DNA of 64,000 nucleotides from the NCBI GenBank assembly GCA_046331685.1, contig JAXLQI010000003.1:102960-166959 (forward strand). Reading direction: 5' to 3'. Below the pieces are notes generated by a model. That model made no database searches and was not told the DNA's origin. It saw nothing but the letters and a program-made list of their open reading frames with translations. This DNA is from Candidatus Micrarchaeia archaeon (lineage in GTDB: Archaea > Micrarchaeota > Micrarchaeia > Anstonellales > Bilamarchaeaceae). Positions 27,568-46,228 of the stretch are shown here, in pieces; position 1 is the stretch's first letter, and each line of letters begins with the position of its first letter. Both the position numbers and the translations under genes were made by a program.

Positions 27568-27598
27568 TTATAATATCCCGACCGGATAGTGCTTATGG

Positions 27599-28887: not shown

Positions 28888-29418
28888 ATGGAACGAAAAG
28901 GCGCACCGCATGATGCCGAGAACGTCCTCGCGTTTCCGGCCCGGGCACCGCCACTCCGCGCACCTGCTGTCGGCGGGCTGTCGAAGATGATCAGCAGAGG
29001 CGTATGCCTCGGCCTTCTTGCCCGTATCGCCCCGATAGACAAGGAGCTGGAGGACATGCTCCGGATGCCTGAGAAGATGTACATGATCGAAAGGAGCGAT
29101 TGCTTCTCTTCCCAGTCGGACCGGGATATCTCAGGAGTGGTCATGCATCTCCAGTTCGGCCTTTCGATGCCCCTGGATTTCGCCGATTACGGCATCGACG
29201 TCAGCGGGAAGGGAAGCTCATCCTTCTGCACGTTCGTGGACCGGTCGAGGAAGGTGATCGTCTCGATGCCCCTGCAGACTCTCTATGGCGGCGAGGCGTC
29301 TTGGGACGACTTCAAGGACGGTTTGCGGCATGCCCTCTCCGCAGCGAAGGCCAAGGAGGGCAGCGGGGAGAGGTTCGACTTCGTTCTCTTCAAGGACAGC
29401 CTCATCAGCACCATCTGA
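28888..29418 (+). CDS. Hypothetical protein
   Basis: 176-aa ORF in the same orientation as the Lrp/HExxH cluster. No motif recognised. Confidence 0.35.
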   Translation: MERKGAPHDAENVLAFPARAPPLRAPAVGGLSKMISRGVCLGLLARIAPIDKELEDMLRMPEKMYMIERSDCFSSQSDRDISGVVMHLQFGLSMPLDFADYGIDVSGKGSSSFCTFVDRSRKVIVSMPLQTLYGGEASWDDFKDGLRHALSAAKAKEGSGERFDFVLFKDSLISTI

Positions 29419-29462: not shown

Positions 29463-29957
29463 ATGGCACTGAGGAAAATCCCTGGCGGAAGGGCCACGGC
29501 TGCAGTCTCCGCCGATCCCGATGTCAAAGCGGTCCCGCGTGATTCTGTCGTCGCCCAGCTGCGTGACCTCGCCTCGGGATGGAAGCAGGGCTACGAGAAG
29601 ACGCTCAACATGCCCGGCCAGCTCTACTCTTTCCAGGAAGGGACCCTTCTCGCCTTCTCGTCTGATGAGCGGATGCGCGCGCTCGATTTCCTCCCCTCCA
29701 TGCGATCCGGTGGCGCTCCTCCCGGCGGGATCGACGCTTACGGCCTCATCGTCTATGAGACATCCAGTTCGGCCTACTTCCTCCTCGTGGACACCGGACG
29801 GGGGATATTGGTCAAAGGGCAGATAGCGAGCTTCCATTCCGGCGAGAAGGAGGATTGGGGCCGTTTCATGGGCTCCGTGGAAAAAGCGCTGGGGCTCGCG
29901 AGGCCCGGTAAAATCGCGGTCGTGGATACGGTCCTCGGCATCAGCGAGACGTACTGA
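29463..29957 (+). CDS. Hypothetical protein
   Basis: 164 aa with protein-like composition. Its stop abuts the stop of the convergent 120-aa gene. Confidence 0.4.
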   Translation: MALRKIPGGRATAAVSADPDVKAVPRDSVVAQLRDLASGWKQGYEKTLNMPGQLYSFQEGTLLAFSSDERMRALDFLPSMRSGGAPPGGIDAYGLIVYETSSSAYFLLVDTGRGILVKGQIASFHSGEKEDWGRFMGSVEKALGLARPGKIAVVDTVLGISETY

Positions 29958-30320
29958 TCAGACCGCCTTTTCCATGACCTCGCGGATCACTTTTGCGACA
30001 GGGGACTTCTCATCCGCGTTGTGCAGGCTGATCTTTATAGGCTGTCCGGCCTTGTTCTGGTACGTGACATCGACCCTGAAAGAGTCGGAGTTTATGCTCC
30101 ACACCCTCGTGTCATCGCCTTTCAGGAAAGCCATATGTGAAACGGTATATTTTTTTGAAAGCTCGGCATAGAGCGTCTCAGCCACCCTTTGGGCCAGGCC
30201 CGCCCTCTCCTGCGCGCTGCCTGCCTTGTCGCCGAGGCGGCTCTCCGCCATTATCTTCAGCGACAATGGTTTCGCTTCATGCTCTTTCCCTTGCGCGCCT
30301 TTCCTTCGGAATGTGCTCAT
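29958..30320 (-). CDS. Hypothetical 120-aa protein, last gene of the giant-gene operon
   Basis: It starts 27 nt downstream of the giant ORF stop. A GGTGA Shine-Dalgarno-like element lies 4-8 nt upstream of its ATG. Confidence 0.5.
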   Translation of the reverse strand: MSTFRRKGAQGKEHEAKPLSLKIMAESRLGDKAGSAQERAGLAQRVAETLYAELSKKYTVSHMAFLKGDDTRVWSINSDSFRVDVTYQNKAGQPIKISLHNADEKSPVAKVIREVMEKAV

Positions 30321-30347
30321 AGATTCACCCGCCTCATTGGATATCCC

Positions 30348-33300
30348 CTACGGTTTCCTTAAAGCCCGCTCTTTCAGCAGGAGCATGTAAACGAACGAAT
30401 TGAAAACCGATAATGGATCATGCGTCTCGACATTATAGTAATCCTTCGCCCCTTTGATGAACGACCTCTGGTCGCCGCAGGTTTCGATCATATCCACATC
30501 ATCCCCGGCGACCCCCACGTGGGGCAGGTACTCGTAACCCGGCGCCACCCAGTAATAAGAGATATCGACATTCACCCGCTTGCCGTATTTCACCTCCAGC
30601 AGGGCCTTTGTGAATGGCAGGAGGGTCTTGTAGCCGGTATCGACGAGGACTCCGTCGAAGACCTTCTTCTTCGACGGGTCGGTTATCCCGCTCTTGGCAA
30701 GATAACTGAGCAGTTTTTCGCAATTCGCTTTGAACTGCGGATCCATATGCATCGCGCTCTTGATCTGCAGCCGGAGGCTGTTCATGAAATGCCCGAACAG
30801 GTCGGTCTGCATGCTTGCCACCGTAGCCGTCTTAGGGTCAGCAGAAGCCTTGAATACCGAATAGGCATACTGGTTGGCCTTGAAGACCATATCCGAGATG
30901 TTATGCGCATCGTTCTCGAAGAAATCCTTGCCGAGGGAGGTCCTGGTTATCAGCGCGCCCTTGGGCATCTTATGCCCTTTCCTGCTCGCTATCGTCCCGT
31001 CGACCACCATGAACGCGGCTCCATCCCTCCAGAGGTATACCCTGGACTTGTCCGGATAATGGCTGACGATCGCATCTGTGGACAGGAAGACCCTCTCCAC
31101 CACATGCTCGAGGGGACTCACTCCGAATCCTTCAGTGATGGGTATCTGCTTGTCTATGGCTACGCTCTCGACGCCGAATATCCCGGCGTTCTTGTTGATT
31201 ATGAGCTGGAGCTGGGCCTTCGAGAGCTTCTTGGCCGTGTGTTTCGTCGCGAAATCCATCAGGGCTTTTTCGAGTTCGGCCATCTTCTTGACATCCTTGA
31301 ATGAATGCCCGATCGTGAGCAGGTCCTCGGGTACCGACGATTCCAGATCCGCCCTGAAGCTGTCGATGCTCTTGAACCTGCTTTGGGCCTTGAACTCGCT
31401 CTCGACTAATCTGCTATATGCTACATCCGGCGATTCTTTTTCAACGGGTTTGGGGGCAGGGAGCTTCGGTTTCATCCCTGATCTGCTCAGGCGGAGATGC
31501 TCTGTAGCGATCTCGATGGTCGTCCAATCCGGATGCTGGTCCTTTATTATCAGCATCTCGAAATAATCCGAGCTCACGACCATGAAACCCGTGATCGCTG
31601 CTTTCCCCAGCTTGTCGAATTCCTCGGCGAGCCCCTTCACCCGGGCCGCGTCTTCGATTGCATGCCGCTTTATCTCTAGCTCCCGCTCATAATAGATGAC
31701 CCTCGACTGGCGCAGGGTCTCTTCCTTGACCGCGTTCCCGCCGTGATCGAGCTTTTCGGCGATTTTCTTCACCGCATCGCGATATTCGGGATAGTCCTTG
31801 GTCACTTCCGCCAGGGTGAACCCTGCCTTCAGATTCTCGACGAAATGCTCGAGGGTTCCGGCGATCTTCCCGACCCTATCCTTGGTCATACCGCCGCCGA
31901 CAAGATCCTCAATGCCCTCAAGCATCCTGACCCTCGGGCTTTTCCTCGCAGGTATGCCCACCCTCTCGGATTTGTCGCCGACCGTGATGTCGAATTCGAA
32001 CGCATCGATTTTCTCAGACATACTAGTCATGATCTTCGATTTCCCGGCGAATACCATGCCAGGTGGCAGGACTGTATCAGGCGCCGCAAGCAACTCATCA
32101 GCGTACGCTGAAGGTTCTGTGATCAGTTCTGATTCTTTGACCGCCATAGGGGTCTTGGAGATCTCTTTCGGACCGGCGCTCTTCTCCTTCGGCGGCACGA
32201 CCGGCGTGATCAGATCCTCTTCCGTGACAACCATGGGCGTCTCTGAGATCTCCTTTGGTTTGAAGCCTTTTCCGGTCGCAGCTGGTTCTGGCCCTTCCCC
32301 CCCGGGTGGCGGGGGCAGTGCGGCCGGCTCGGCAATCTTGGGCGCCGGAAGTTTCCCGGTCTTGGCCGCTCCTCCCTTCCCTGCGACAGTCCCTTCGGCC
32401 GGCCCGTATCTCAATTCTTCCCAACGCTCGTTGATGAAGTCGTTCAGGCCGCTGACCGGCCTTTTCTTGCCTAGGTACCAGATGATGTCCAGGTGCAGCT
32501 GCCTGACAAGGTCCCGTGTCCCGGGAATGACCTTCCCAGGCAGGCGTATGACGACGAAATGCTCCTCTTTTTGGGTTTTGGTCGCGTCCTCATTCGCTTC
32601 CTTGGGGCTGACGTCCCCGGTGTGCGTTTTCAGGTACTCGTGAATGGGGATAACCCGATCATAAGCTACCACGACCCCCTCGTTTTTCTGTATCCCTGCC
32701 GGAATCTTGACGTGGATGTCATACTCTCCGATCTCCTTCATGCTTTTCGCTCCAAAAGGCATATCATAGCTCATGACGCCATCAGTGCCTACATGGATTC
32801 CACGGGGGTCGTTTGTGGTGAGCCTGTCGAAATATCTGATGCCCTCTGCCGTCTCGGCATACCCCTGGAAATCGAAAGTCTTTGCAAGGCCTTTTTCCGA
32901 CTTTATCGCGAAAAGCTGATCGTATTCTTCGCCCGAAAGGAGCGGCAGGCCGTTATGCATGCGGCCTTTCCAGCCTCCTGCTTTTACCAATGCTTCTGCC
33001 GGCGTCTCCTCGGGAGCCATCTTCGGGGGTGCCGCAGGCTCGGTTTTTTCGAATCCCGTTGGAATGGGTGCTTTCTTTGCCAGCTCTTCCACGGACGCTG
33101 ATTCAGGCACCGGAACAGGAGGCGCTTTCTTGGCCGGAGCGGTCTTCTCCACCACCTCTTCGGGGGGAGGAGCGGGTTTCTTCGCCAGCGGCGTCTTGGC
33201 CTCTTCAGCTGGAACGGGCGGCTCTACAGCGAGCGCCTTTTTCTTCCCTAATGCAGGGGTGGCCTCAGGCTGCTTCTTCGGCGGTTTGGCCGTGAACTCC

Positions 33301-36300
33301 TCGGCGCCTGCGGCAAGGGGCAGTCCGGCCGGAGTCGCCACCTTCTTCGCCATAACCGGCGTCTTATCCTCTTCGGTGCCGATCGGTGTTTTCGCCGTTT
33401 CTTTTATCCTGCGCTCGACGGCGCCCTTCAGCCCCTCGACGTATTCAGCCTGGTCACGGCGTGCTGCATCCATCAGCGCCAGTATCTCGTCGCCGTAGAG
33501 ATGGACCCGTCCATCGACCCTCTCGACGGTCCGGACCCTGCCCCCGTGGATGAACAGGGAGCCCACTTTCGGGGCATTCGGGCTTGTCGTGTCGAAGCCG
33601 AGCCCGAAGGGCTTCCCTTCGTGGGCTTCGACGATCGGTTTCACAGGGCTCTTCAGGTCGGACGGGGCGAGCTTGTCGGCTTTGAGGTCCAGCCCGGCTT
33701 TCTCTCCTAGCAGCTCTGCCATCATGGCTTTCGCGGCCGGGACCTCACCTTGGAACAGGTCCTTCCCGTTCCCCATCTTGATGGACGCCGCCTTGTCGAG
33801 CGCAGAGGCCATGTCGATGAGCATGCCGCTCGTTGCATCAGCGAAATCCCTGTTGAAGTCGGTGAAATCCGGTTTCCCTTCCTTGGATCCGATCCTGGCC
33901 CCTATGCCGTCCATGTCTATCGGCTGGAACGTCAGCTCTACCTCGCCGCTTGCGCGCCGCACCAGCATCACTGTGGTGTTCCGGTCGAAACGGTCCATCA
34001 GCAGGATCCTTCTCGAAAGCTCGTGATACGTGTTCCAGGCCTTGAATATCTTCTCCCTGCCCTCTTTCGTCTGGGCTAGCTTGTAGAACATCGCCGCTGC
34101 GGCGTTGTCGGCGTCAGGCTTCTTCAGGACCTCATCCCTGAACATGGCAACCCCCAGGACTGTCACGTTCTCCGTCTTCCCGTCCGATGGCAGGCTCGCC
34201 ATGACCTTCTTGCCTTCGTAGGCTTTCACCAGGGATCCGTCCGGCAAGGTTATCGTGGTTTCGGAGTGCCCTGTTTTCGGGGATGCCAGGTCATGTATGT
34301 CCAGCGATATCCCGTAGTCCTGCATCAGCGGTTTTCCGTCGACCATCAACCCTGTGTCGTATGCATACCCGTGCAGGGTCTCGGGCGGGACGAGGCCTTT
34401 GGAAGCTGCCAGTTCCTCCCCGAATTTGACCGGGAGCATATCCTCGGGCTTCACGAATATGCTCCGCCCGTCCGACATCTTCACCTTGAAGATGCCCCTC
34501 AACCCGCTCAGGGGCTCGACGCTGCTTATCTTCTTGCCGCCGAATCCCGGGATCGCCGCGATCCTCGCAGGCAATCCGCCCCTCACGATCAGATCCAGGA
34601 ATACCTTGACCTTGGAGTCATATTCGAATGTCTCGCTCTCGAGCCGTATCCTGTGGGGCCCGACCTTGTCCGCCAATTCGGCTTTTTTCGGGTCCCCGTC
34701 CGCCATCCCCGCGACCTGGCCCTCCGTGTGCTCGACCCATCTCTTCAGCTCGATGATGCCGTCCCGGTCTTTCCTGAAAGACGAGATGTCGATCCCGAAA
34801 GCGTCAAGGACATTCAGCCTTCCTTCCGATCCGCCCTCACCGTAGATCTCTTTCATCAGGGCCGGGTCCTGGCCGTTCTTCTTTGTATAGGCGGCGATCG
34901 CTCCGAATTCCTCCCCGGGAGGCAGGGCGGCCTTAGCCTCATCGATTTTTTTCAGGTGCCCCAGCTCTTTCGCGCCCCTGAACCATTCCATCGCCATGCG
35001 AAGCTTCATCATGGGATTGTTTTCCAGGATCATGTGGTCCAGCTTCCAGGCCAGGTACGGATCGGTCGCCCTTATGCTGTCGATGATGAACTTTCCTGAG
35101 GGTTTTGTGAATATGCTACCGCTGAATTCGGCTAGGCCCTCGGCCGTCCCCCCTGCTAGGAGGTGCGAATACGCTTTTCCTATGGACGTGCTGACGCTCT
35201 CTCCAGGCGCAGCTTTGAGCAGGAAATCCGCGATGACGGCCCGGGTGACCGGGTCGGCAGATTCGAAGACGTTTTTCACCAGGCCGTTCTTCCTGATGGC
35301 TTCGACCGAGGACGATCTCGGATCGCCGGTCTTGGCCCATTCTGCGAGCCTGGCCTCGGCTTCGCTCATCGATATGTCGCCGCGCATCCTGAGCGAGCCC
35401 TCGGCCACCTTGAGGAGGTCTGTGAGCTTCGGGCTTCCGCTTTCTATCTCGAGCCTCGCCGCCGCGATCCCGTCGCTGTCCACCCCCTCTATGTTCTTCT
35501 TGTATTCCGAGATCTTCTCCATGGCCGGCGGGGGTTCCTTCGGTTTCGGGACAGCCTTGGACGAGATGCCCTCCGCCTCTGTCCAGGATGCAGGGTCAGT
35601 CCTGCCCTCGAGCTTCTTCGCGGCTTTCCGCAGGGCCACTATGTCGGACTCCACGGCATCCGCTTCGGCATGCTTGCCTTCAGCGCGGAGTATCGACGCT
35701 TGGTCGGTGAGCTTGTTCGATCTCTCGAATAGCATCTCCGAAGGCGTCTTAGGTTTGGCAGACGGGACGGGTTCGGGGTATTTCGCGGCAGGGCTAGGCT
35801 CCTTCATCGGCGCCGGTTCGATCGGTTTCGCGGTGCCAGGTTCCACACCGCCTGGTTTGATCCCGCTTTTGAGCGTCGGTTCTATTGCCACAGGTGCTGC
35901 GACCGGGGCGGTTTCCATCCCAGGTATGGTCGCGGCCATCTCCATCCTGATGCTGTCCCAGGTCTTCGCTGCGAACCCTCCCGGGTCCTCCGAGTTTGTC
36001 TTGTAGAGCTCTTTGAACACCGTGGCAGCATCGGCGGTCAGGATCGTCCTGCCGTCCGTGTCCATCGGCACGTTCTTCTTCCCGTTGATGAAATTCTTCC
36101 CTTCGATCCTGAACATCTCATCGACATCGTGGAGCTCTGCCGCGGCCTCGGCCGGGGCTTCCTCTCCCTTCAGGAACGCCTCCCTCCTTTTAGCGAGGGC
36201 TGCCTTCTGCCCCATGGTGAGCTTTGCGTTGAGGCCTATGCCTATCGGGGTCCCGGCATTGGAAGTGAGGGCCTTCTCCACCCCGTCAACGAATCCAGGT

Positions 36301-39300
36301 GATTTTCCTATCTCCTCATGCCAGGCTTTCGCGCCTTCCTTGATGCTCGAAAAGGATTCTGTGAAAAGCGTCTTATACGTCTTACCGGACGGCCCAAGGT
36401 CGGTCAGCTGCATCTGGAGCAGCACATCCATCGTGCCCCTCAATTCGGTCCCGTACGATTCGTGGAGTTCCCCGAAATCCAGCTTCCCCCCGCTTTCTTT
36501 GGCCAGGAACGCCGCGCCGGAATCCGTGTCTATCCTGCCGAACCTGAGGACCATCGCCCCCTTCTCATCGGATACCACCAGGTGCCCGAGTTTCTCCAGG
36601 TGGGCGGCATCCTCTTTGGAGACCCTTCTGGTCATCGCCCATATGTTCCCGTGGTGGCCGTCTGAGAAGCCGACGCTCATGAGGCCGGTCTGGGTGTATC
36701 CGTACTCCTTCATGACCAGTTTCCAGAACAGCTCGGGATTCTCGGCCCTCATCTTCTTCAGGGCAGGATTCGCTTCGACGAACTTGGAGAACTGCTCGAT
36801 CGCCATGGCCGACTCGGTCTTCTCGTGGATGATCTTCCCGCCGGCCTTGGCGTCGCCCTCATGGTATCCCATGTGCTGCATGATCCCGAATCTGGCCCTG
36901 CGCCCTCGGTCGAACAAAGACAGCTCTTTGCCGCCGTGGCCGGTTATCACTTCCGGGGCCGCGATCCCCGCATGTTTTTCCGCAAGCGTCGAGCCCAGCT
37001 TTTCTGCCGAGAGATCCTGCGCCTTCGCTATGAACGCGACTTTCTCCTTCCCCGGCGTCTCGACTGTGATCTCGAAGGCTCCCTGGGCGGCGAATATGAA
37101 CCTGACTTTCTTGACCTTGCTTCCTGCCGGGATCTTCTGGTTCGCGAAAGTTATCTCGCCTTTTCCTATCATGGAGGCGAGATCGCTGGTCAGCAGCCCG
37201 ATGGCTCGCGTCGTCGCGCTTCCTGCCTCCAGCTCTATCCCGGCGCCATGAAGCGCGTCGCTGATTTTGTTTGTAAGCTCCCAGACGTCCTCATTCTCCA
37301 GCGCTGCCTTTTCGATTTTGGCCTTGAGCTCCGGAGCCTTTGACGGTTCAGGAGCTAGCTTGGACAATGCTTCGGAGTTCGCGATGGCACTGAGACGTAG
37401 ACCGATATCATATTTCCCTTTCTTCTCAAGAGCGTCAAGGGCCTTTGCCAGGTTCTCAGGCTTCCCGATCCCTTTCTTCAGGAGGGCTCCGGCGAGGTAA
37501 TCCTCATCTGCCGGTTCCCGTCCCTCGCTCTCGGCTCGTCCTTTCGCGAACTCGGATGCCGCGATATCCACCGGATTCTTCGAAGCTTTGAGTTTGAGGC
37601 TTATCGCCTCTTTTGTCATCTCCCCGATTAATTCGAATGCGGCTTTCTCCAATGGCGCTCCCTGTTTCGCCGCTTCCTCTTTGATGGCCGCTGTGAACTG
37701 TTCATCAAGTTCCGTCGCAGGCGGTTTGTTCCCTTTCGCCATCTCTGCATACGCCTTGGCGGCAGCCTTCTGGCCTTCCACTGCCTTAGCGGCGGTTTCG
37801 GGGCTTACACCTTCGCCCACAAGCTTTTCGATCGCATTCTTCCCGACCTCGTCGAGCGCTTTCTCTCCTGTCGATAAGACCGGTTTCGCTTCGATAGTCT
37901 GTTTCACCGGCTCTATCTTCGGCCCGCCTGACTTCACATCCCTTGCCGCTTCCATCCCGAGCTCGTAGGAAAGATCAGCAGGCGAAAGTTCGGAAGCCTT
38001 GATGACTTTGAAGAATTCCGCCTTGCCTGAGAATTCGGGCGGGACCTTCCCGCTCTTCGAATACTCATTGTAGGCATCGGTGAGCGATTTCGTCCTTGCT
38101 TCGGTTTCGGAAGGTGCGATTTTTTCCACCGCTTCAGGCTTTGGCGCTTCCGCAACTGCTGCCTCGGGTTTGGTCACCCCACCGGCTTTCTTCTTCGCGA
38201 GCGCTTCTTTGAGCTTCGACAGCGCCTCCCCCTTCACGAATGTCTTCGCAGGGGATTTCGCCTCGCTGAAAGCCGCCTCCGGGGACTTCCCCTTCGAACG
38301 CGCTTCGGTGTATCTGATGACGAAGTCAGGTGATGGGGCGGTCGCCTCCTTGAAAGCCTCGGCCGGCCCCTTTCCTTCGTTGCGGGCTGACGAATAAAGG
38401 AGGTGAGGCATCTCGCCTGCGGTCATCATCTTGCTCAGGTGGCCTGCCTCCAGGTCGAGCATCAGCTTCTTGCTCTCGGGAGGGAGACCCTCTGCCGCTT
38501 TGCTCATCTCCGAGATCCCAGCCCTGACCTCGATGGGGTTCTTGCCGGACATTACCTTGGCGTAGGATTCACCGGCGCCGCCCATGCTCTTGCGGAACCC
38601 TGCCAGTTCCTTTGCAGCCGCGTGCTCCTCCACGGACATGAACTCGCTCCGGAATCCGAACAGGATCTGCGTGAACTGCGAAGCGCGGGAGCTGTATTTC
38701 GGCACCCCTCCCTCATGGACCGAGAGGGCCATCCTCTTCGACACGCGCGCCTGCGCCCAAGGAAGAAGGACGGAGGTCGAGGCCCCGCTCATTCCGGTGA
38801 AGACAAGCCCCTGCCAGCCCATCTCGCCTTTCTTGTAAGCATCGTAGATCTTGGGCGCCTGGAATACCAGGAATTCGCCGGCCCCTCCGTAGAACATCGA
38901 TTTCTCAAGTCCCCACGTTGCGCCTTTGTAAGCGTAATACCCAGCTTTGGCTAACCCGCCCGCGGGGGCTTCCGCCGCGGCAAGGAAAGTCAGCCCCTTC
39001 AGCGCTGCTATCCGGTGCCCAATCGGCACGACCGCCCCGACAGCGCTCAGGCCCGCCCTGATATATAATTCGGTGCTCCATTTCCCTGATCTCTCGGCCT
39101 CCTCATAGGCTTCGGCCACGCCCTTGACGCCGGTGACGACGAAATACGCCCCTCCGGTCGCAGCTCCGAGGATCATATCGCCTGCGAACGTCCCTGCAGC
39201 CTTCCCGAAAGCGTAGCGGGCGCCGATGTCGCCCATTTCGCTCTTCAGTCCCTTGGTCTTCGCGTCAGAATCGGATATCTCTCCCTTGTCGGTGAAAGAG

Positions 39301-42300
39301 ACCATCCCGCTGGACTTGAGCGTCGCATCCGATCCGCTGATGTCGCCAGCGATCGCGAGGTCTCCGGCTTTCTTGGACAGAATCATCCTCCCGAGGACGA
39401 CGGCCACGAACTCCTTCTCGGTCTGGACGCCGGTCCCTGCCACCGATGGGGTCTTGGTCCCGAAGCCGATAGATATGTCGTATCCTTCCACGGTCGGAAC
39501 AAGGACATTATCAAGCAGCATATCGAAGTTCTGGGCCGCCTTCATCAGCCTCTCCCTCTGGTCCGGGGAGAGCCTCTCCAGCGATTCGAATCTCAGGCCG
39601 TCGACCGTCTCCTTGGCGTCCAGGCCCACCCTCCAGAAGAAGATATGGCCCGCATCTTTCCCCGCCTTCTCTATGTCTTCCTTGTTGCCCTCCTTGGCAT
39701 CTCCGAACATGTAGGATGAAGTGAGCAGCATCTCGGACCTGCTTACCGACATCACTTCCTTGCCGAAGTTGATTTTCCTCGGGACGCGCCTTCCATGCTC
39801 GTCCACAGCTGAATAGACGGATATGTAAGTGCTTTTCTGGGGGCCGGTCTTGAAGTCGCCGGTGGTGTGCTCGTAAACGGTCGCCGTGACCTCTTTGTTG
39901 GTCTTGAGGGCAGTGAGGAATGTCTCGTCGTTGTCCAGGGCGGTCATCGCATCCTCAAGGCAGATCGCGCTCATCTCCCTCGCGGCTGTCGATGTGTCGT
40001 ATTCGAGCTTGAAATACGGGAGCTTCATCCCGGTCCTCTTCTCATACTCCTTCGCGATCTCTGCGAAATCCTCGGCCTTCTCCAGCCTTCCGAACTCAGA
40101 AAGATCGCCTTTGAGCATGAACCGCTTGCCCTTCTCTATGAACGCTTTTGCGAACTCCCTTGCGGCCGTCCTCTCCTTCTCCTTCCCCACCGTTTCACGG
40201 TATTTCTTGTCTGCCGCTTCCAGGACCGGAGGATTCTTCTCTCCTGCGAGGATCGAGTCCACAGCCTTATGGTTGGCGCTTGCGGTTCCCTCCCAATCCT
40301 TCTCGCTCCGCTCGTAGCTGGCGCCGAGCTTGTCGAGCGGGGATTTCAGGGCCTTGTTCCTCTCATCCCTCAACTTCACGGCATCGTCTTTCTCTACGAC
40401 CCCATACGGGGCCTTTTCCAGGAACGCGCCATCCACGCCCGCCTTTTCATCACGGGCCTTCCACTTGTTGAAATCAGATGTGGCGGCTTTGATCCCGTAT
40501 CCCTCGGCCATCTTGGCCTTGAACATGTCAGATTCGAGCGTCCTGAATCCTTTCCTCGCTCCGATCACATCTCCTGCCTCAGCGGCATCGCTGAGGGCCA
40601 TGAGCCTCTTGCCATAGAACGATGTATTGAAGTATGGGAGCCTGCCTTTCTCGACGACGTCCTTGATGGAGCCTTTCTCATACGCTCCGGCCCCGGGCAC
40701 CGGGATGGATTCCAGCATCAGCCTCGAAAGGAGCTTCTCCCTCGCTCCGAGCCCGTCCTTGCCCGGAGGGATCATCGCGAGCTCTTTCTCATATCTGTAC
40801 CTGCTGTTCGGGTCAGGTATCAGTCCGACCAGCACTCCGAGCTCAGGGTTCCCGATCGTCCCACGGTCTCCTCCTGCGAAGAACTTGATCCCGTTGTCGG
40901 CATAGCCCTTCTTTATATCGTACTCGTCCAGGTGCATCTTCGCCCCCTGGAACCTGATATCGAAATTCGTGTGGACCTTCGCCGAATATGTCTCGGCATC
41001 CGCGAACCGCTCGGACCAGTTGAGCGAGATGACGGTGGAATGCTTGGTCTTGTAGCCGTTGAGGTCGAGCCATTTCTCCCCGCGCTCGTCCGTGGTCTTG
41101 ACGCCCTGCGATCCGGTGAGGTCCTCATACAGCTTCTGCAGTTTTGCCGGATCGTCGCCTGCGGCCGCAAGGCGGTCGCCTTTGCCGTGGTATGAGACGA
41201 GGTCGTTGTAGAGCGCTTTCAGCTTCCCCTGGTCTTCGCCCGCTTCTGCGTACCTCTCTGAGAAGACCTCCTTCATGGGCTTCTGCCCTTCCCTGAGGTA
41301 AGTCTCTTTCGGGAAGTTCGCGATCATATCCCTGACCAGGAGCTTTGTAAGGACGCTCTGGACCCTGCCTATGTCCTTCTTGAAGGCCTCCTGCTCGAGC
41401 CATATCGCTCCGTCACGCTGTTTCTTTATCTTCTCCTCACGGGAGACCAGCTCGCTGCCCGCTGCGTTCAAGCCTATGCCCCGCTCGACAAGCTTCTTCT
41501 TCCTCTCGGCGGTCAGCGGCACCGGCTTCGAGTCCGCCCCGATGAGCTTCTCGCCTTTCTCATCGGCATCATGGCCTTCGCCGATCGCGAGGAACGTCTT
41601 CGCGGCAGCGTCGAGCTCGGCCCTCCCGCTCTTCTTGTTTATGGTGTCTATCCTGGTGACGCTCTTGTGGAGCTTGGCGAGAGAATCGGCCGCCGCGTCC
41701 GCGCTCAATCTCTTATCATTTCCGCTCGCTATGAGCGATGTTATTTCTTGGTCTAAGAGTGACTTGTATAAGGCGTTCCGAAGCTCGTCGGCCTCCTTCG
41801 CCTTGCCCTCTTTCCCGAGCGAATCCGCTTTCTTGAGAGCGAGATCGACCTTCTCCTTCATCTCCGGCGGAAGCCCGCTCGAGAGTTCGTCGGTCCTCTT
41901 CCTCACGAACGCCGGCCCGGCGTCATCCGCCGCTTCGTACTCCTCTTCAAGGTCGACCGACATCAGCAACTCGGATGTCCCTTTTTCGCGGAGGGCCGCT
42001 GCCCTGCCGACCGAGCTTGTCATGGACACGAAGTCCGAGCCTTCCGAAGCATATTTCTTCTTCATCGCCTCGCGGTCCTTCTCGGCCCCTAGTATCGCGA
42101 TCCCTTTCGAGTCGCCGGCAGCTTTTTCCTGGAGGAACGAATCCCGGGTCAATTCGTGCCCCAGCTTGACCGCTGATTTAATCCCGGCTGCTTCGACAGC
42201 GTCTTCCAGCTCTGCCTTCGTCGGTTCCCTTCCGAGCTCTTTCTTCAGGCTCGCCTCGGTCTCCGCCCTCTTCTCCTTCCCGAGGGCTTCAGTCACCGAT

Positions 42301-45300
42301 CCTCCTGCGAGTATGGCTTTCGCGAGCGGCGCGTCTATGGCGCCTTCGGGCGGCTTCCAGCCTTTCGGTCCGATATCGAGGATCCTTTTGCCTCCAAGGG
42401 TATTGTTGGCAGAATATTCCCCGAGGTATCTCTCTGCGCGGACCATCCTTTTCGTGCGTTCTGAAGCTCCTTCAGGGCTCAGCTTGCCTTCATCCATGGC
42501 CGCGTCCTTGGCGTACATCGCCGCCATGTCGAATATTATCTTGGCCTCCTTCTTCAGCCCGGAGCCCGCGGTCCTGATCGCAAGGTCGAAATACGCCTGG
42601 GCATTCGTCTTCATCGCCGGATTCGTTATCTTCGCCTCCAGCTCGGTCCTCTCCTTGTAGATGGATAAGACGAGCAGGTCCGGATCGTTGAAGACAGGGA
42701 TGCCTGGCAGCTTGGAGTTGGCCTCTCCCACCCTCGCTATCGCCAGCACCCTTTCCCGGTCTTCTTTCTTCACGCTGAGATATATCTCGGCGATGTTCTG
42801 GAATATCATCCCGTTCTCCAGGTCCCCGGACATGATCCTCCGCGCAGAGCTCCCCAGCATCTCCAGGACCGCTTCCTTCTGGTCCTTGGGCGCGGCAGGA
42901 TTGAGCATCTCGCTATACGACTTGACGAGTTTCTCCATCGCCTTGACGCGTGATAACTCTTCCCTTGCCGCAAGATCAGCGATCGTCAGCTTCTTCTCCT
43001 TGAGGTACTTCTCGACCGCGCCCTTGAACTCCGGGTCCTCTGCCATCTGCTTCTTTATCTTCGCTTCAGAGGCCGCGATATCCTCCTTCGATATGCGGTC
43101 TTCGCCCTTGACAAGGCGGTCCTTCTCCTTCTTCAATTCACCGATCAGCCAGCCGAGCTCAGCTTTCCCGGGAGCCTTCTCGCCCATCGATTTATGGGCC
43201 TTGGTCAGCTTGATCAGGTTCCCTTCCAGTATGAGATAGCCCCGGGCGATGACCTCGGCAAGCTCGGGCTTCTTCGATATCACGGCGATGACCTGCTTGA
43301 TCTCATTCTTCTGCTCTGGAGTGCCTTTGGAGAATCGCAGAGCGAGCACCGCGATTGAGTTCATCGCCCCTTTATCCCAGTCCTTCAGGTATCCTTCCAT
43401 CCCCTTATCGAATATCGCTGCCGTCTCGCTGAGAGCCGGCTCTTTGATGCCGGACAGTATGTCCTTCCTGACCTTCCCGACGAAACCCAGGATCGTCATG
43501 CCCTTCTCTATCGCCTCTTTCGTCGCCTTGCCCGGTGCCTCAAGAGGCTTGAGCGCCGCTTCTATCCCATCTTTGATCTCCTTGGGCAAGGTCTTATCGA
43601 GAAGGATCTTTTTCAGTCCGGAGACTATCTCGGCGGCGAGTTTCAGTTCATCCGCCGCAGGAGCTTTGGCTTCAACCGCTGCGGGTTTGGGGGCAGTGGG
43701 TTTGACGGCCGGTTCTTTTGGTTTTGCGACCGGTCCTGTAGGGACTACAGTGGGGGGAGTAACCGCCGGCCCTTTGGGCACTGCAGCCGGAGCCTTTGGA
43801 GCCTCAGGAGCAGCCTTCTTCTCCTCGGGCGCAGGAGCGAGCTTGAATCCAGGCCCTTTTGAAGGGGGCTGCATCTTCGGCAATGGAGTGTGGTACGGTT
43901 TCCCTTCCTCCAGCTTGTCCGCTTTCTTCTCGCGCTCCTCCTTGCCCTTCCCTGCGTTCCTGAACGACTCGGCGAGCGCCTTTACCCTCGGGTCGTTCCT
44001 GTCCTTTATCCCGAGGGCCCGCATGGCGGCTTCTTCGACGCTGAACCCCCTCCCCACCAGCCACTCCATGTTGCGGAGGTTCATCCCATCTTCGAGATTG
44101 GAAGACATCTTCTCAAGGGCGCCGGCGACCTCCTTGTCCCCGCCTTTCTCCGCGTATTTCTTCCCCAGCTCGTACTGCTTCACGGCGGTATCCATCCCGC
44201 CGCCGCGGAGCACGCAGTCCAGGGCGCGTCCGAAGATCTTCATCGCGCCGTCCTTTATCTCCTTGGCTTTGCCGGCGAGCTTGCCTTCCGAGTCGAATAT
44301 CTTGCCGACAAGCTCCGAGGCGAACGTCATCTTCTCTAGCTCGGCGATCGTGGCTGGCGGTTTGTCCTTGAACATCTTCGCGATCGCTTCGGCTTTCGCT
44401 TTCAGTATGCTGTCTTTGAACCCGGCAGCGGCTTCGGCGGCTTTCTTCTGGTATTCCGCCCCGACAGCCGAGACCGCCTGCGCCACGGTCTTTTTCCTCT
44501 CGGAGAGGTCCTTGCTTATCTCATCGAGCTTTTTCCGCAGCTCCCCTTTGGCCTCGCTGTGCCTGGCGAGGATCGTCTGCTGGAGCTTCGCTGTCTCGAT
44601 GAGGCTCTTGACCGCCTCGGCGCGCTTCTCCTTCGTCGCGCCGGCCTTGCCGAATGAATCTATCAGGCCTTTGACCCGAGGGTCGTTCTTGTCCTTTATG
44701 CCGAGGACCCTCATCGCGGCTTCTTCCGCGCTGAGGCGCTTCGCCGGATCGGTGTTGCTGACATGCCTCTCCATGGCGGCTATGTTGTGCGCCAGGCTCA
44801 GGGCGGCTAGGCCGCGGGCGAAGACCGCGACGCTTTCCCTGGCCTCCTCGCCGGTCTTGTCCTTCAGGATCTTGAGGGCGTTCTTGACGTAGTCTATCTT
44901 CTCTTTCGTCTCCTCCTTATCCTCTTTCCCTGTCTCCTCCTTCTTTTTCTTCTCTTCCTCGAGCTTCTTCTCCAGCGCTTCCAGGTCGTCCTTGAGCTTG
45001 CCTAGCTGCTCCTTCGCGGATTCCTGCATCGCGCTCATCATGAGGGCGCTCACCATCCCCTGGAAGGCGAGCACGGTCGCGGTCTCCGGGCTTCCGCCGC
45101 TTATGGCCGATTCGACAGCGCTGGTCTGCCGGTTAATGCCGTCCATCCGTCCGGCATGGGCCTCCACATGGGCATTTGCCTCGTCGGTGTTGCCGAGGGG
45201 GTGGCTCGACATGGTGAGGACTTCCTTCTCCACCCTGGCTGCCAGAGTCGGATCTGCGCTGAGGGCCTCAGGATGGTCGGCGATGTGCTCGACCGCGTTC

Positions 45301-45812
45301 AGGGTCGCCCTTCCCAGCGAGAGATGCGCCGCCCTCTCGGTCGGGTCGTCTGAGAGCCCCGCGAAGTTCCAGAAATTGTTCCGGAACATGTCTATCGTGC
45401 CCTGGGGGGCTCCTGACGCCTCGAGGATCATCTCGCCCCTGATCGTCCTGCCGAGGCCGATGATGGCCATCCTGAGGTCAGCCCCGTCCCTCTCGGCAGC
45501 CGCCATATCCCCGGACTTGATGTGGCCTTCCCTCCGGAGAGCGATGTCTTCGATCGTGGCGAGCTCCCTGCCATGGGTGGACCGCATGTTCTCGGGGACG
45601 ATGGCCTCCACCCTTGATCTTATCCCTGCGGCATCGGGAAGGCTGGTCCCGAGGCTTCCGGCAGCGCTCGAGAACCGGTCGAGCATGACCCTCGTAGAGG
45701 CGTCGACGGATCCTATGTTGGCTTTCGAGGCAGCGAGACGGTCGGGTGTCAGGTCGAGCCCGCCGAATTGAGGGTGGCTCGATCCGGGCGTATCCATCGT
45801 CTTCTGCGCCAT
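30348..45812 (-). CDS. Giant protein of about 5,150 aa, of unknown function. It is rich in K/E/A low-complexity and probable coiled-coil sequence, with internal repeats, Pro-rich linkers, a central hydrophobic cluster and globular regions with no family I can name.
   Basis: A single uninterrupted 15.6-kb ORF in a GC-rich genome. The track start at 45998 overlaps the upstream gene. The Met at 45810-45812 (MAQKTMD) lies 5 nt after the upstream stop. There is no N-terminal signal peptide. Confidence 0.85.
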   Translation of the reverse strand: MAQKTMDTPGSSHPQFGGLDLTPDRLAASKANIGSVDASTRVMLDRFSSAAGSLGTSLPDAAGIRSRVEAIVPENMRSTHGRELATIEDIALRREGHIKSGDMAAAERDGADLRMAIIGLGRTIRGEMILEASGAPQGTIDMFRNNFWNFAGLSDDPTERAAHLSLGRATLNAVEHIADHPEALSADPTLAARVEKEVLTMSSHPLGNTDEANAHVEAHAGRMDGINRQTSAVESAISGGSPETATVLAFQGMVSALMMSAMQESAKEQLGKLKDDLEALEKKLEEEKKKKEETGKEDKEETKEKIDYVKNALKILKDKTGEEARESVAVFARGLAALSLAHNIAAMERHVSNTDPAKRLSAEEAAMRVLGIKDKNDPRVKGLIDSFGKAGATKEKRAEAVKSLIETAKLQQTILARHSEAKGELRKKLDEISKDLSERKKTVAQAVSAVGAEYQKKAAEAAAGFKDSILKAKAEAIAKMFKDKPPATIAELEKMTFASELVGKIFDSEGKLAGKAKEIKDGAMKIFGRALDCVLRGGGMDTAVKQYELGKKYAEKGGDKEVAGALEKMSSNLEDGMNLRNMEWLVGRGFSVEEAAMRALGIKDRNDPRVKALAESFRNAGKGKEEREKKADKLEEGKPYHTPLPKMQPPSKGPGFKLAPAPEEKKAAPEAPKAPAAVPKGPAVTPPTVVPTGPVAKPKEPAVKPTAPKPAAVEAKAPAADELKLAAEIVSGLKKILLDKTLPKEIKDGIEAALKPLEAPGKATKEAIEKGMTILGFVGKVRKDILSGIKEPALSETAAIFDKGMEGYLKDWDKGAMNSIAVLALRFSKGTPEQKNEIKQVIAVISKKPELAEVIARGYLILEGNLIKLTKAHKSMGEKAPGKAELGWLIGELKKEKDRLVKGEDRISKEDIAASEAKIKKQMAEDPEFKGAVEKYLKEKKLTIADLAAREELSRVKAMEKLVKSYSEMLNPAAPKDQKEAVLEMLGSSARRIMSGDLENGMIFQNIAEIYLSVKKEDRERVLAIARVGEANSKLPGIPVFNDPDLLVLSIYKERTELEAKITNPAMKTNAQAYFDLAIRTAGSGLKKEAKIIFDMAAMYAKDAAMDEGKLSPEGASERTKRMVRAERYLGEYSANNTLGGKRILDIGPKGWKPPEGAIDAPLAKAILAGGSVTEALGKEKRAETEASLKKELGREPTKAELEDAVEAAGIKSAVKLGHELTRDSFLQEKAAGDSKGIAILGAEKDREAMKKKYASEGSDFVSMTSSVGRAAALREKGTSELLMSVDLEEEYEAADDAGPAFVRKRTDELSSGLPPEMKEKVDLALKKADSLGKEGKAKEADELRNALYKSLLDQEITSLIASGNDKRLSADAAADSLAKLHKSVTRIDTINKKSGRAELDAAAKTFLAIGEGHDADEKGEKLIGADSKPVPLTAERKKKLVERGIGLNAAGSELVSREEKIKKQRDGAIWLEQEAFKKDIGRVQSVLTKLLVRDMIANFPKETYLREGQKPMKEVFSERYAEAGEDQGKLKALYNDLVSYHGKGDRLAAAGDDPAKLQKLYEDLTGSQGVKTTDERGEKWLDLNGYKTKHSTVISLNWSERFADAETYSAKVHTNFDIRFQGAKMHLDEYDIKKGYADNGIKFFAGGDRGTIGNPELGVLVGLIPDPNSRYRYEKELAMIPPGKDGLGAREKLLSRLMLESIPVPGAGAYEKGSIKDVVEKGRLPYFNTSFYGKRLMALSDAAEAGDVIGARKGFRTLESDMFKAKMAEGYGIKAATSDFNKWKARDEKAGVDGAFLEKAPYGVVEKDDAVKLRDERNKALKSPLDKLGASYERSEKDWEGTASANHKAVDSILAGEKNPPVLEAADKKYRETVGKEKERTAAREFAKAFIEKGKRFMLKGDLSEFGRLEKAEDFAEIAKEYEKRTGMKLPYFKLEYDTSTAAREMSAICLEDAMTALDNDETFLTALKTNKEVTATVYEHTTGDFKTGPQKSTYISVYSAVDEHGRRVPRKINFGKEVMSVSRSEMLLTSSYMFGDAKEGNKEDIEKAGKDAGHIFFWRVGLDAKETVDGLRFESLERLSPDQRERLMKAAQNFDMLLDNVLVPTVEGYDISIGFGTKTPSVAGTGVQTEKEFVAVVLGRMILSKKAGDLAIAGDISGSDATLKSSGMVSFTDKGEISDSDAKTKGLKSEMGDIGARYAFGKAAGTFAGDMILGAATGGAYFVVTGVKGVAEAYEEAERSGKWSTELYIRAGLSAVGAVVPIGHRIAALKGLTFLAAAEAPAGGLAKAGYYAYKGATWGLEKSMFYGGAGEFLVFQAPKIYDAYKKGEMGWQGLVFTGMSGASTSVLLPWAQARVSKRMALSVHEGGVPKYSSRASQFTQILFGFRSEFMSVEEHAAAKELAGFRKSMGGAGESYAKVMSGKNPIEVRAGISEMSKAAEGLPPESKKLMLDLEAGHLSKMMTAGEMPHLLYSSARNEGKGPAEAFKEATAPSPDFVIRYTEARSKGKSPEAAFSEAKSPAKTFVKGEALSKLKEALAKKKAGGVTKPEAAVAEAPKPEAVEKIAPSETEARTKSLTDAYNEYSKSGKVPPEFSGKAEFFKVIKASELSPADLSYELGMEAARDVKSGGPKIEPVKQTIEAKPVLSTGEKALDEVGKNAIEKLVGEGVSPETAAKAVEGQKAAAKAYAEMAKGNKPPATELDEQFTAAIKEEAAKQGAPLEKAAFELIGEMTKEAISLKLKASKNPVDIAASEFAKGRAESEGREPADEDYLAGALLKKGIGKPENLAKALDALEKKGKYDIGLRLSAIANSEALSKLAPEPSKAPELKAKIEKAALENEDVWELTNKISDALHGAGIELEAGSATTRAIGLLTSDLASMIGKGEITFANQKIPAGSKVKKVRFIFAAQGAFEITVETPGKEKVAFIAKAQDLSAEKLGSTLAEKHAGIAAPEVITGHGGKELSLFDRGRRARFGIMQHMGYHEGDAKAGGKIIHEKTESAMAIEQFSKFVEANPALKKMRAENPELFWKLVMKEYGYTQTGLMSVGFSDGHHGNIWAMTRRVSKEDAAHLEKLGHLVVSDEKGAMVLRFGRIDTDSGAAFLAKESGGKLDFGELHESYGTELRGTMDVLLQMQLTDLGPSGKTYKTLFTESFSSIKEGAKAWHEEIGKSPGFVDGVEKALTSNAGTPIGIGLNAKLTMGQKAALAKRREAFLKGEEAPAEAAAELHDVDEMFRIEGKNFINGKKNVPMDTDGRTILTADAATVFKELYKTNSEDPGGFAAKTWDSIRMEMAATIPGMETAPVAAPVAIEPTLKSGIKPGGVEPGTAKPIEPAPMKEPSPAAKYPEPVPSAKPKTPSEMLFERSNKLTDQASILRAEGKHAEADAVESDIVALRKAAKKLEGRTDPASWTEAEGISSKAVPKPKEPPPAMEKISEYKKNIEGVDSDGIAAARLEIESGSPKLTDLLKVAEGSLRMRGDISMSEAEARLAEWAKTGDPRSSSVEAIRKNGLVKNVFESADPVTRAVIADFLLKAAPGESVSTSIGKAYSHLLAGGTAEGLAEFSGSIFTKPSGKFIIDSIRATDPYLAWKLDHMILENNPMMKLRMAMEWFRGAKELGHLKKIDEAKAALPPGEEFGAIAAYTKKNGQDPALMKEIYGEGGSEGRLNVLDAFGIDISSFRKDRDGIIELKRWVEHTEGQVAGMADGDPKKAELADKVGPHRIRLESETFEYDSKVKVFLDLIVRGGLPARIAAIPGFGGKKISSVEPLSGLRGIFKVKMSDGRSIFVKPEDMLPVKFGEELAASKGLVPPETLHGYAYDTGLMVDGKPLMQDYGISLDIHDLASPKTGHSETTITLPDGSLVKAYEGKKVMASLPSDGKTENVTVLGVAMFRDEVLKKPDADNAAAAMFYKLAQTKEGREKIFKAWNTYHELSRRILLMDRFDRNTTVMLVRRASGEVELTFQPIDMDGIGARIGSKEGKPDFTDFNRDFADATSGMLIDMASALDKAASIKMGNGKDLFQGEVPAAKAMMAELLGEKAGLDLKADKLAPSDLKSPVKPIVEAHEGKPFGLGFDTTSPNAPKVGSLFIHGGRVRTVERVDGRVHLYGDEILALMDAARRDQAEYVEGLKGAVERRIKETAKTPIGTEEDKTPVMAKKVATPAGLPLAAGAEEFTAKPPKKQPEATPALGKKKALAVEPPVPAEEAKTPLAKKPAPPPEEVVEKTAPAKKAPPVPVPESASVEELAKKAPIPTGFEKTEPAAPPKMAPEETPAEALVKAGGWKGRMHNGLPLLSGEEYDQLFAIKSEKGLAKTFDFQGYAETAEGIRYFDRLTTNDPRGIHVGTDGVMSYDMPFGAKSMKEIGEYDIHVKIPAGIQKNEGVVVAYDRVIPIHEYLKTHTGDVSPKEANEDATKTQKEEHFVVIRLPGKVIPGTRDLVRQLHLDIIWYLGKKRPVSGLNDFINERWEELRYGPAEGTVAGKGGAAKTGKLPAPKIAEPAALPPPPGGEGPEPAATGKGFKPKEISETPMVVTEEDLITPVVPPKEKSAGPKEISKTPMAVKESELITEPSAYADELLAAPDTVLPPGMVFAGKSKIMTSMSEKIDAFEFDITVGDKSERVGIPARKSPRVRMLEGIEDLVGGGMTKDRVGKIAGTLEHFVENLKAGFTLAEVTKDYPEYRDAVKKIAEKLDHGGNAVKEETLRQSRVIYYERELEIKRHAIEDAARVKGLAEEFDKLGKAAITGFMVVSSDYFEMLIIKDQHPDWTTIEIATEHLRLSRSGMKPKLPAPKPVEKESPDVAYSRLVESEFKAQSRFKSIDSFRADLESSVPEDLLTIGHSFKDVKKMAELEKALMDFATKHTAKKLSKAQLQLIINKNAGIFGVESVAIDKQIPITEGFGVSPLEHVVERVFLSTDAIVSHYPDKSRVYLWRDGAAFMVVDGTIASRKGHKMPKGALITRTSLGKDFFENDAHNISDMVFKANQYAYSVFKASADPKTATVASMQTDLFGHFMNSLRLQIKSAMHMDPQFKANCEKLLSYLAKSGITDPSKKKVFDGVLVDTGYKTLLPFTKALLEVKYGKRVNVDISYYWVAPGYEYLPHVGVAGDDVDMIETCGDQRSFIKGAKDYYNVETHDPLSVFNSFVYMLLLKERALRKP

Positions 45813-45817
45813 ATGCT

Positions 45818-46153
45818 TCACTCGGGCCGGATGCCCTCCGCTATCCTGACCAGATCCCGGAGCCTTTGGATGCGGGTCTCGAAAGTATCCGTGAACTTTG
45901 GCTTGCTGGCCTCCCACCCCTTCAGGGCGTCCAGGGCTTTCTGGTACCTCTCGAAATTCTTCGCGAGCTCCGGGGGCTTCCCGCCGGATGCTTTCCATGC
46001 CGCGAGCGCCTCCTCGAGCTGGGCGATCATCTTCTTCACCCGTTCGCGGGTCTCGGCTTCGACCTGGCCGATCGTGGATTCGTTTATCTTGGGGTTGAGG
46101 GCTTCGGCGACCAGCGAATTCTCGTATCTCTCCAATTCCTCTGGACTTGCCAT
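45818..46153 (-). CDS. Hypothetical 111-aa helical protein, first gene of the giant-gene operon
   Basis: MASPEELERYENSL... with charged, helical composition. Its stop lies 5 nt before the giant-gene ATG. Confidence 0.5.
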   Translation of the reverse strand: MASPEELERYENSLVAEALNPKINESTIGQVEAETRERVKKMIAQLEEALAAWKASGGKPPELAKNFERYQKALDALKGWEASKPKFTDTFETRIQRLRDLVRIAEGIRPE

Positions 46154-46159
46154 GTTAAA

Positions 46160-46210
46160 CGCCTGCAGGATCCTCTAATAGGATTCTTGCAGTAAGTATA
46201 TATATCCATT
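46160..46210 (-). promoter_or_regulatory. Candidate promoter for the 111-aa/giant-gene operon: a TATA-like box plus an inverted repeat
   Basis: gtatatatatcc at 46197-46208 lies about 45-55 nt upstream of the ATG. An imperfect inverted repeat GCAGGATCCTC..AGGATTCTTGC at 46162-46187 sits between it and the start. Confidence 0.4.
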
Positions 46211-46228
46211 TTCCGGAGCCGCGGAATG

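Follow-up and report, generated by a model that had tools for sequence, protein, structure and literature searches.

We analysed a 64,000-nt stretch of contig JAXLQI010000003.1 (assembly GCA_046331685.1), referred to here as the window, which comes from a metagenome-assembled genome (MAG) of Candidatus Micrarchaeia (Micrarchaeota), a tiny, probably host-dependent DPANN archaeon. On its minus strand lies a single gene of 15.5 kb (30348..45812) that encodes a protein of 5,154 aa (557.7 kDa, pI 7.07). Upstream of it, on the same strand, is a gene for a 111-aa protein (45818..46153), downstream a gene for a 120-aa protein (29958..30320), and two plus-strand genes for 164-aa and 176-aa proteins (29463..29957 and 28888..29418) converge on this unit. 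An earlier note on this DNA, made from the sequence alone, assigned the giant protein no function and saw in it a weak kinase-like echo. By motifs and predicted structure, this echo proves to be two complete, catalytically intact kinase-like modules, and modules of this type define a family of giant proteins in Micrarchaeota.

The giant open reading frame (ORF) is a genuine chromosomal gene. The longest ORF of the minus strand spans 30348..45998 and counts 5,216 stop-free codons from its first ATG; the first 62 of these overlap the 111-aa gene, and the giant gene itself begins with the ATG at 45812. At a per-codon stop probability of 0.036, derived from base composition, 5,216 codons would remain without a stop with a probability of about 1e-82, so that, as claimed earlier for an uninterrupted ORF of about 5,150 aa, a chance origin is essentially impossible. 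The other two minus-strand frames contain 236 and 125 stops, and the runner-up stop-free stretches in the window reach 1,122 codons on the plus strand and 629 codons on the minus strand. The GC content at third codon positions (GC3) of the giant gene is 0.74, inside the range of the neighbouring genes. The protein (P0002 in our set) is 100% identical over its 5,154 aa to NCBI entry MFN7991375.1 (locus U0R44_04435), a "hypothetical protein" in GenBank, encoded on a 223-kb contig of a MAG assigned to Candidatus Micrarchaeia. The start that the earlier note had placed at 45812 agrees with the length of this public protein, and it is supported by the sister locus L004, in which a small gene (its product 77% identical to the 111-aa protein) is followed, after a gap of 4 nt, by a giant ORF beginning MAHKEMDTPGSTHPQFGNLNL, the counterpart of the N-terminus MAQKTMDTPGSSHPQFGGLDL in the window.

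An ORF of this size could in principle reflect a mis-assembled or chimeric contig, or a decaying pseudogene that is still open. The sequence is indeed that of a MAG; an independent Logan assembly (SRR26348421), 100% identical across 43789-48154 of the window, confirms only the 5' 2 kb of the 15.5-kb gene; and in one relative (L005) the gene is split into overlapping ORFs of 4,502 and 876 aa. In that locus, the usual C-terminal domain of ~600 aa resides on the separate 876-aa ORF (17455-20085), which shares 55 nt with the end of the 4,502-aa ORF; a frameshift, either programmed or an error, could account for this, as could a truly split gene. However, the improbability of the open frame, its native GC3, the evident conservation of the catalytic residues described below, and dozens of collinear, similar-sized relatives from independent sources (NCBI, JGI, ENA and Logan) effectively refute an artefact.

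The giant protein is rich in alanine (12.4%), lysine (10.6%) and glutamate (9.5%), as noted before. Its N-terminus, MAQKTMDTPGSSHPQ..., is hydrophilic, and no 19-residue Kyte-Doolittle window across the whole protein exceeds 1.46. Thus, there is no obvious transmembrane helix and, in agreement with the earlier note, no obvious N-terminal signal peptide, and we dismissed a transmembrane or secreted surface protein. A repeat protein was dismissed as well, given that the internal repetition consists of one 80-aa repeat and the two kinase-like modules only.

Kinase-like modules D1 and D2

Module D1 (aa 2880-3290; 35943..37175, minus strand) contains K2930, D3051-G-H-H-G-N3056 and I-D3095-T-D3097, and module D2 (aa 3720-4130; 33423..34655, minus strand) contains a G3770-x-x-G3773 loop, K3788, D3940-R-F-D-R-N3945 and I-D3966-M-D3968; these catalytic residues were verified in the DNA. 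Judged by their motifs, both modules keep the Gly-rich loop, the Lys, the D-x4-N signature and the metal-binding Asp of kinase-fold phosphotransferases. D1 and D2 are homologous to each other: jackhmmer merges the two types, and hhalign aligns them with a probability of 100% (E 2.6e-56). An iterated search joins D1, D2 and one to three regions of each relative into a single family of modules of ~400 aa, and D1 is 44% identical to one module of P0001. In an alignment of 77 modules, mostly less than 60% identical to one another (identity range across module sequences, 17-47%), D3940, N3945, D3966 and G3798 (D2 numbering) are kept in all 77, G3773 in 99%, D3968 in 96%, G3770 in 94% and K3788 in 87%.

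The AlphaFold model of the kinase module (pLDDT 93.6, pTM 0.92) has the bilobal fold of the protein-kinase-like (PKL) superfamily, with an N-lobe beta-sheet and alpha-C helix and a helical C-lobe, and the catalytic pattern of this superfamily, a Lys, an Asp with an Asn five residues on and a metal-binding Asp, is found in both D1 and D2. The closest structural neighbours are catalytic domains of the PI3K, PI4K and PIKK families, with structural comparison figures of 13.3 for PI3K-alpha, 13.0 for Vps34, 12.6 for PI4KIII-beta, 12.0 for SMG1 and about 11 for Tel1, mTOR, PI4KIII-alpha and PI4KII-alpha; CotH scores 11.5, Bud32 and actin-fragmin kinase reach 10.2, and aminoglycoside kinases, RIO, HipA, SelO and eukaryotic protein kinases 8-9. 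The top Foldseek matches, ATM, Vps34, PI4KIII-beta and ATR, are weak (E 2.6e-4 upward, TM-score <=0.29). On the predicted structure, the modules belong to the PKL superfamily and are nearest to PI3K, PI4K and PIKK; we place them near these families and not in PF00454 because the Pfam model and the PDB profile miss them. They match neither of the Pkinase models (PF00069/PF07714), and they have neither HRD nor DFG/APE motifs.

The signatures of PI3K and PI4K are FK-x-GDDLRQD ((F/V)K-x-GDDLRQD), DRHxxN and IDFG. The consensus motifs of the giant family, FVKxEDL (FVKxEDLxP), DRHxRN and IDxD, resemble them in position and partly in residues, a comparison made motif by motif and not by alignment. 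In the window giant, the corresponding motifs are FVKPEDM, DRFDRN and IDMD in D2, and IAKAQDL, DGHHGN and IDTD in D1.

Despite the structural proximity to the PF00454 clan (PI3K-alpha 4ykn, Vps34 2x6f, PI4KIII-beta 8q6f, SMG1, ATM/Tel1 and mTOR), the modules are only 10-15% identical to these enzymes, with about 235 of 411 residues superposing. They are arranged in tandem within an archaeal protein of 4-7 thousand residues in which FAT, FATC, helical or C2 accessory domains were not detected; D-x-D replaces DFG; and the His of DRH is variable in modules of the D2 type, where DRF, DRY and DRA occur. CotH (5jda), the Legionella PI 3-kinase MavQ (7m7a), HipA, Bud32/RIO and actin-fragmin kinase (1cja) belong to the same superfamily and score below PI3K/PI4K; each consists of a single domain, measures 250-550 aa in total and has no detectable sequence relationship to the modules.

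From the model, the modules are quite probably active phosphotransferases. The same fold could serve another chemistry, such as AMPylation (SelO-like), glutamylation (SidJ-like) or the phosphorylation of small molecules or sugars (APH-, MTR-kinase- or WaaP-like) in place of proteins or phosphoinositide-like lipids, which we regard as distinctly improbable.

The giant-protein family and its architecture

An exhaustive HMMER search with giant aa 2802-4000 among 1.84 billion representatives returned 70 proteins at E<=1e-3, 34 of them at E<=1e-30; most of the 70 are 3,000-7,300 aa long, and a protein carries one to three kinase-like modules. All relatives with a name belong to MAGs of Candidatus Micrarchaeota or Micrarchaeia. 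The source is thus a DPANN archaeon, and the earlier note had named episymbiotic DPANN archaea as an example of lineages with giant proteins. Other searches recovered far fewer members: a word-indexed protein search with aa 2850-4020, which badly under-samples the family, found one relative only, a scan of GTDB species representatives one other MAG only, that of the same relative, and a scan of JGI metagenomes with the kinase core 5 loci only. A scan of IMG/VR viral contigs gave no relatives of the giant, and a viral origin is therefore not indicated. The MAG of the window encodes three giant paralogues, U0R44_04435 (5,154 aa), U0R44_03465 (6,069 aa) and U0R44_03430 (5,879 aa), the latter two (P0008 and P0020) on one other contig, 35 locus-tag units apart; the MAG AB1529 shows this pairing too, with two members (AB1529_04980 and _05015) that are separated by 35 locus-tag units on a single contig.

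Annotation libraries miss these proteins. Searches of Pfam, NCBIfam and PADLOC with five overlapping 1,200-aa tiles of the giant and with the small proteins gave no significant match, and the one sub-threshold Pfam match, to NNMT_PNMT_TEMT with 20.2 bits where the cut-off is 25, was treated as noise; phmmer searches of the PDB with both halves of the giant gave no match either. In the full text of PubMed Central and bioRxiv, no prior description of Micrarchaeota giant proteins or kinase domains was found. The fold is a known one; the family, the architecture of its members and the genes around them appear not to have been described before.

The giant protein is a string of blocks, several of them separated by Pro-rich stretches, that comprises an N-terminal region, a conserved core, the two kinase-like modules and a lineage-variable C-terminal part. 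In full-length comparisons, the architecture of the relatives is largely collinear, with giant aa 350-2420 common to 11-18 of them and the kinase regions to up to 49. Within the N-terminal region (aa 1-624; 43941..45812, minus strand), aa 1-350 are nearly private to the window giant, and aa 350-790 are common to 18 relatives. A repeat of ~80 aa (aa 343-423 and 578-653, 42% identity; 44544-44786 and 43854-44081, minus strand) shares the core EEAAMR(V/A)LGIKD(K/R)NDPRVK. A sliding-window proline count delimited a Pro/Ala/Lys-rich stretch at aa 625-727 (43632..43940, minus strand) and five more at aa 3296-3370, 3400-3436, 4157-4280, 4473-4531 and 4519-4555, the last two overlapping; these stretches may act as flexible linkers.

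The family-conserved core (aa 730-2420; 38553..43625, minus strand) is common to 11-18 giant relatives. Its part aa 1450-2420, the one segment outside the modules that was modelled with AlphaFold, consists of long alpha-helices, in accord with the long helical stretches foreseen earlier. Toward its end, a Gly/Ala-rich patch at aa ~2200-2400 (38613..39215, minus strand), where the model is of low confidence, is amphipathic to hydrophobic, with a Kyte-Doolittle maximum of 1.42. One or two helices of moderate hydrophobicity are present in several relatives within the part aligned to giant aa 1870-2420, and Kyte-Doolittle values there reach 1.6-2.0 in P0005, P0011, P0016, P0020 and P0032; hypothetically, the patch could form a membrane-inserting hairpin. 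Most of aa 2420-2880 and aa 4130-4770 are private to the window giant. The C-terminal domain (aa 4795-5154; 30351..31430, minus strand) is common only to P0005 and P0016, and neither a PDB profile search nor the JGI metagenome scan gave a match to it; other relatives end in an unrelated domain of ~600 aa instead.

In most relatives a module of the D2 type precedes one of the D1 type, whereas D1 comes first in the window giant, which therefore reflects an internal rearrangement or an independent duplication. We delimit the family by one or more modules of ~400 aa that show G-x-x-G, K, D-x4-N and I-D-x-D, a length above 3,000 aa, a conserved core largely collinear with aa 350-2420 and an abutting small upstream gene of the up-110 family (see below); the window giant has all of these features. 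Four relatives (P0024, P0055, P0023 and P0028) in addition carry a PPP-type (calcineurin-like) phosphoesterase domain with the motifs GDxHG, GDxVDRG and GNHE, located beside the kinase modules at aa 3758-3881 in P0024 and aa 3309-3388 in P0055 (L005 and L007). The window giant has no such domain; its presence in relatives fits a theme of phospho-transfer.

The long helices of aa 1450-2420, the six Pro-rich stretches between blocks, the huge size and the K/E/A-rich composition would also suit a structural megaprotein, that is, a cytoskeletal or envelope scaffold or a molecular ruler whose modules are pseudokinases or nucleotide-binding switches, and the residues beside the catalytic Asp are off consensus in both D1 and D2. 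Pseudokinases, however, typically lose the catalytic Asp, the Asn, the metal-binding Asp and the Lys, and the giant family keeps the first three in 77 of 77 modules and the Lys in 87% even at 17-47% identity. Together with the intact PPP motifs of the phosphoesterase in some relatives, this makes a structural role quite unlikely.

Giant proteins have been described in other ultra-small or host-associated prokaryotes. The SPEARE proteins of Nanohaloarchaeota, giants of 5,000-9,400 aa that have been proposed to mediate host interaction (PMC6642349, PMC10266531), have an N-terminal Sec signal peptide and a membrane anchor, repeats of the Ig-like or fibronectin-like type and a VirB4/TraG-like ATPase (PMC10266531). 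They share with the window giant their giant size and their origin in DPANN archaea, but the latter has no signal peptide by Kyte-Doolittle analysis and no Ig, FN3 or AAA match in Pfam, and no SPEARE protein was among the relatives from the exhaustive search, nor is there sequence similarity. The giant multi-enzyme proteins of Omnitrophota ("Archaeovorins"), from bacteria and with sizes above 10,000-85,000 aa, are similar in being very large, non-repetitive mosaics of ultra-small host- or prey-associated prokaryotes; unlike the window giant, in which none is detectable, they contain recognisable Pfam domains, for example glycosyl transferases, peptidases and NUDIX (bioRxiv 10.1101/2023.11.21.568195).

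Genes beside the giant gene

Between the TGA stop of the 111-aa gene and the giant ATG there are 5 nt, and homologues of its product, the up-110 family (105-119 aa; blastp E 1e-7 to 1e-23), are encoded in L004, L005, L006 and L007, overlapping the giant start or at most 5 nt from it. Thus, an up-110 gene abuts the giant gene in all five loci in which the giant start is visible. The 111-aa protein has no match in Pfam, NCBIfam or PADLOC, and its conserved position marks the gene as a dedicated, conserved partner of the giant. At 46197..46205 (minus strand), 44 nt upstream of the 111-aa ATG, we read a TATA-like box, ATATATATA, with TTTATATT at a similar distance in L004; it is the putative archaeal promoter of the giant unit.

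The 120-aa gene, for a basic protein (pI 9.65), begins 27 nt past the giant stop behind a GGTGA motif. Its product matched only itself among 5.8 billion proteins, in a search that uses a word pre-filter, and no counterpart was found downstream of giant relatives in the loci examined, so we dismissed this gene as a conserved partner. The earlier note accurately described the locus, in that the ORF, its start, the spacing of the small genes and the TATA-like box near 46.2 kb were all confirmed, the role of the box as a promoter being inferred. Its dedicated three-gene operon, by contrast, is not a conserved one, because the 120-aa gene is without homologues and absent downstream of the relatives, and its suggestion that the flanking small proteins could be dedicated partners holds for the 111-aa gene and fails for the 120-aa orphan.

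The conserved genes at the 3' end of the giant unit, at 28888-29957 on the plus strand, lay outside the region covered by the earlier note and went unnoticed there. The stop of the 164-aa gene abuts that of the 120-aa gene, and its own TATA-like box (TTATATA) lies about 20 nt upstream of its ATG; the product is 43% identical to L002_181 (E 8e-39). The 176-aa gene is its paralogue, and the encoded protein matches the products of convergent genes downstream of other giants at E 1e-23 to 3e-35 (L002, L005-L007) and 1e-23 to 5e-30 (L008-L010). Genes of this family, conv-180, are found convergent downstream of the giant in all eight loci with a visible 3' end (the window, L002 and L005-L010). Their products, of ~165-250 aa, combine a basic, variable N-terminus with a conserved domain of ~130 aa that carries the motifs MPxxLY, SFSSD, YGI, FCTLVDxxRKIIV and SW, and have no match in Pfam or in the PDB, the latter including a profile search. 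Two more small families recur beside giants, one comprising L006_181/186, L007_235 and L002_179 and the other L002_199, L007_168 and a 429-aa ORF of L010; neither has a member in the window.

Several features of this neighbourhood recall polymorphic toxins (PMC3482391), which likewise combine a conserved body with variable C-terminal domains, a small lineage-specific downstream gene and multiple paralogues. In such a toxin-like or effector system, the giant would be a delivery scaffold with exchangeable C-terminal effectors, the 120-aa orphan would provide immunity, and the central hairpin would enter the target membrane. The C-termini do vary, with aa 4795-5154 present in 2 of about 70 relatives and the unrelated ~600-aa end in others; the 120-aa gene sits close behind the giant gene and is specific to the lineage; a central hydrophobic hairpin recurs in several relatives; genomes hold several giant paralogues; and one of 12 conv-180 members has a faint match to the immunity-protein family SUKH_5 (E 0.03), which is not significant. 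Yet Pfam, NCBIfam and PADLOC found none of the known toxin, pre-toxin, trafficking or secretion domains in the giant, and the search of 5.8 billion proteins, with its word pre-filter, gave no homologue of the 120-aa protein. Moreover, the conserved small neighbours of the family lie upstream or convergent, whereas immunity genes are normally co-directional and downstream, and conservation among the giants is highest in the kinase module and not in an N-terminal delivery domain. We therefore consider a polymorphic-toxin-like system unlikely.

The wider gene content of the window is that of an archaeal chromosome, and nothing suggests a mobile element. Directly upstream of the unit is a gene for aspartate kinase (46229-47620), followed by adjacent genes for AMP phosphorylase and ribose-1,5-bisphosphate isomerase (47759-50270, minus strand), the enzymes of the first two steps in archaeal AMP salvage. 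On the other side, two Lrp/AsnC regulators are encoded in tandem (27112-28009, plus strand). RNA searches identified a stand-alone 5S rRNA gene (880-994, plus strand) and an intron-containing tRNA of 125 nt (22870-22994, minus strand), the latter detected by Rfam and not by ARAGORN. Genes for ribosomal proteins L12, L10 and L1 and for carbamoyl-phosphate synthase lie farther along the window.

Possible function of the giant proteins

As a whole, these results are best read, with a probability of about 0.6, as describing a phosphotransferase megaprotein of a Micrarchaeota giant family, possibly one for symbiont-host interaction. The kinase assignment comes from the predicted structure; the substrate and the biological role proposed here are inferred. 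The giant would be an ATP-dependent phosphotransferase on a long scaffold, acting on a protein or a lipid head group, and the 111-aa protein would be co-translated with it and serve as a chaperone, adaptor or regulator. DPANN genomes measure about 1 Mb. Because the tiny genomes of Micrarchaeota keep up to three such genes, a role at the interface with the host seems the most likely of those we can envisage, and we tentatively suggest that the family might serve cell-cell contact, where it could, for instance, modify components of the envelope or membrane. This suggestion draws on the lifestyle of DPANN archaea, on the cost of three paralogues of ~17 kb in a small genome and on bacterial precedents such as MavQ.

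Several points weigh against the phosphotransferase reading and the host role attached to it. The sequence profiles of Pfam, NCBIfam and the PDB gave no match for 41 modules, singly or as a profile, and PF00454 (PI3_PI4_kinase) in particular matched none of the giant tiles and none of the 41 modules at E<=1, so the kinase assignment depends on one predicted structure and on motifs. The catalytic loops DGHHGN of D1 and DRFDRN of D2 depart from the family DRHxRN, and the activity could therefore be altered. For about half of the giant (aa 1-730, 730-1450, 2420-2880, 3290-3720 and 4130-5154) no fold could be assigned. Furthermore, the host role derives from the DPANN lifestyle at large, and no signal peptide, clear transmembrane helix or nearby secretion-system gene was found that would provide a route to a host.

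A bolder extension of the phosphotransferase reading pictures the Micrarchaeota giants as a lineage-specific, megadalton-scale class of "kinase-on-a-rope" proteins. Their modules would be deep-branching archaeal relatives of the PI3K, PI4K and PIKK catalytic domain, and the proteins would be handed to the host membrane or an intercellular bridge and there phosphorylate inositol-type lipids or proteins of the host; the up-110 protein would be their chaperone, and the central hydrophobic hairpin would anchor them in the membrane. We hold this to be a long shot. To our knowledge, the PI3K/PI4K/PIKK catalytic domain has otherwise been regarded as essentially eukaryotic, a few bacterial effectors excepted. 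If this extension were true, it would represent a new molecular mechanism of DPANN-host interaction.

To conclude, about 51 kb of the MAG are devoted to three giant paralogues that every annotation library tried has missed and that GenBank lists as "hypothetical". The kinase-like module turns what was an opaque orphan into a testable enzyme with named residues and a defined partner gene, and the conserved neighbour genes are candidate substrates or regulators. Should lipids or host proteins be the substrates of the modules, the family would provide a first molecular handle on the dealings of Micrarchaeota with their hosts, and a kinase family that is central in eukaryotic membrane signalling would gain an archaeal branch. 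If the giants are instead ordinary cytoplasmic regulators, they would still represent a new and very divergent branch within the kinase superfamily, with an unusual giant architecture.

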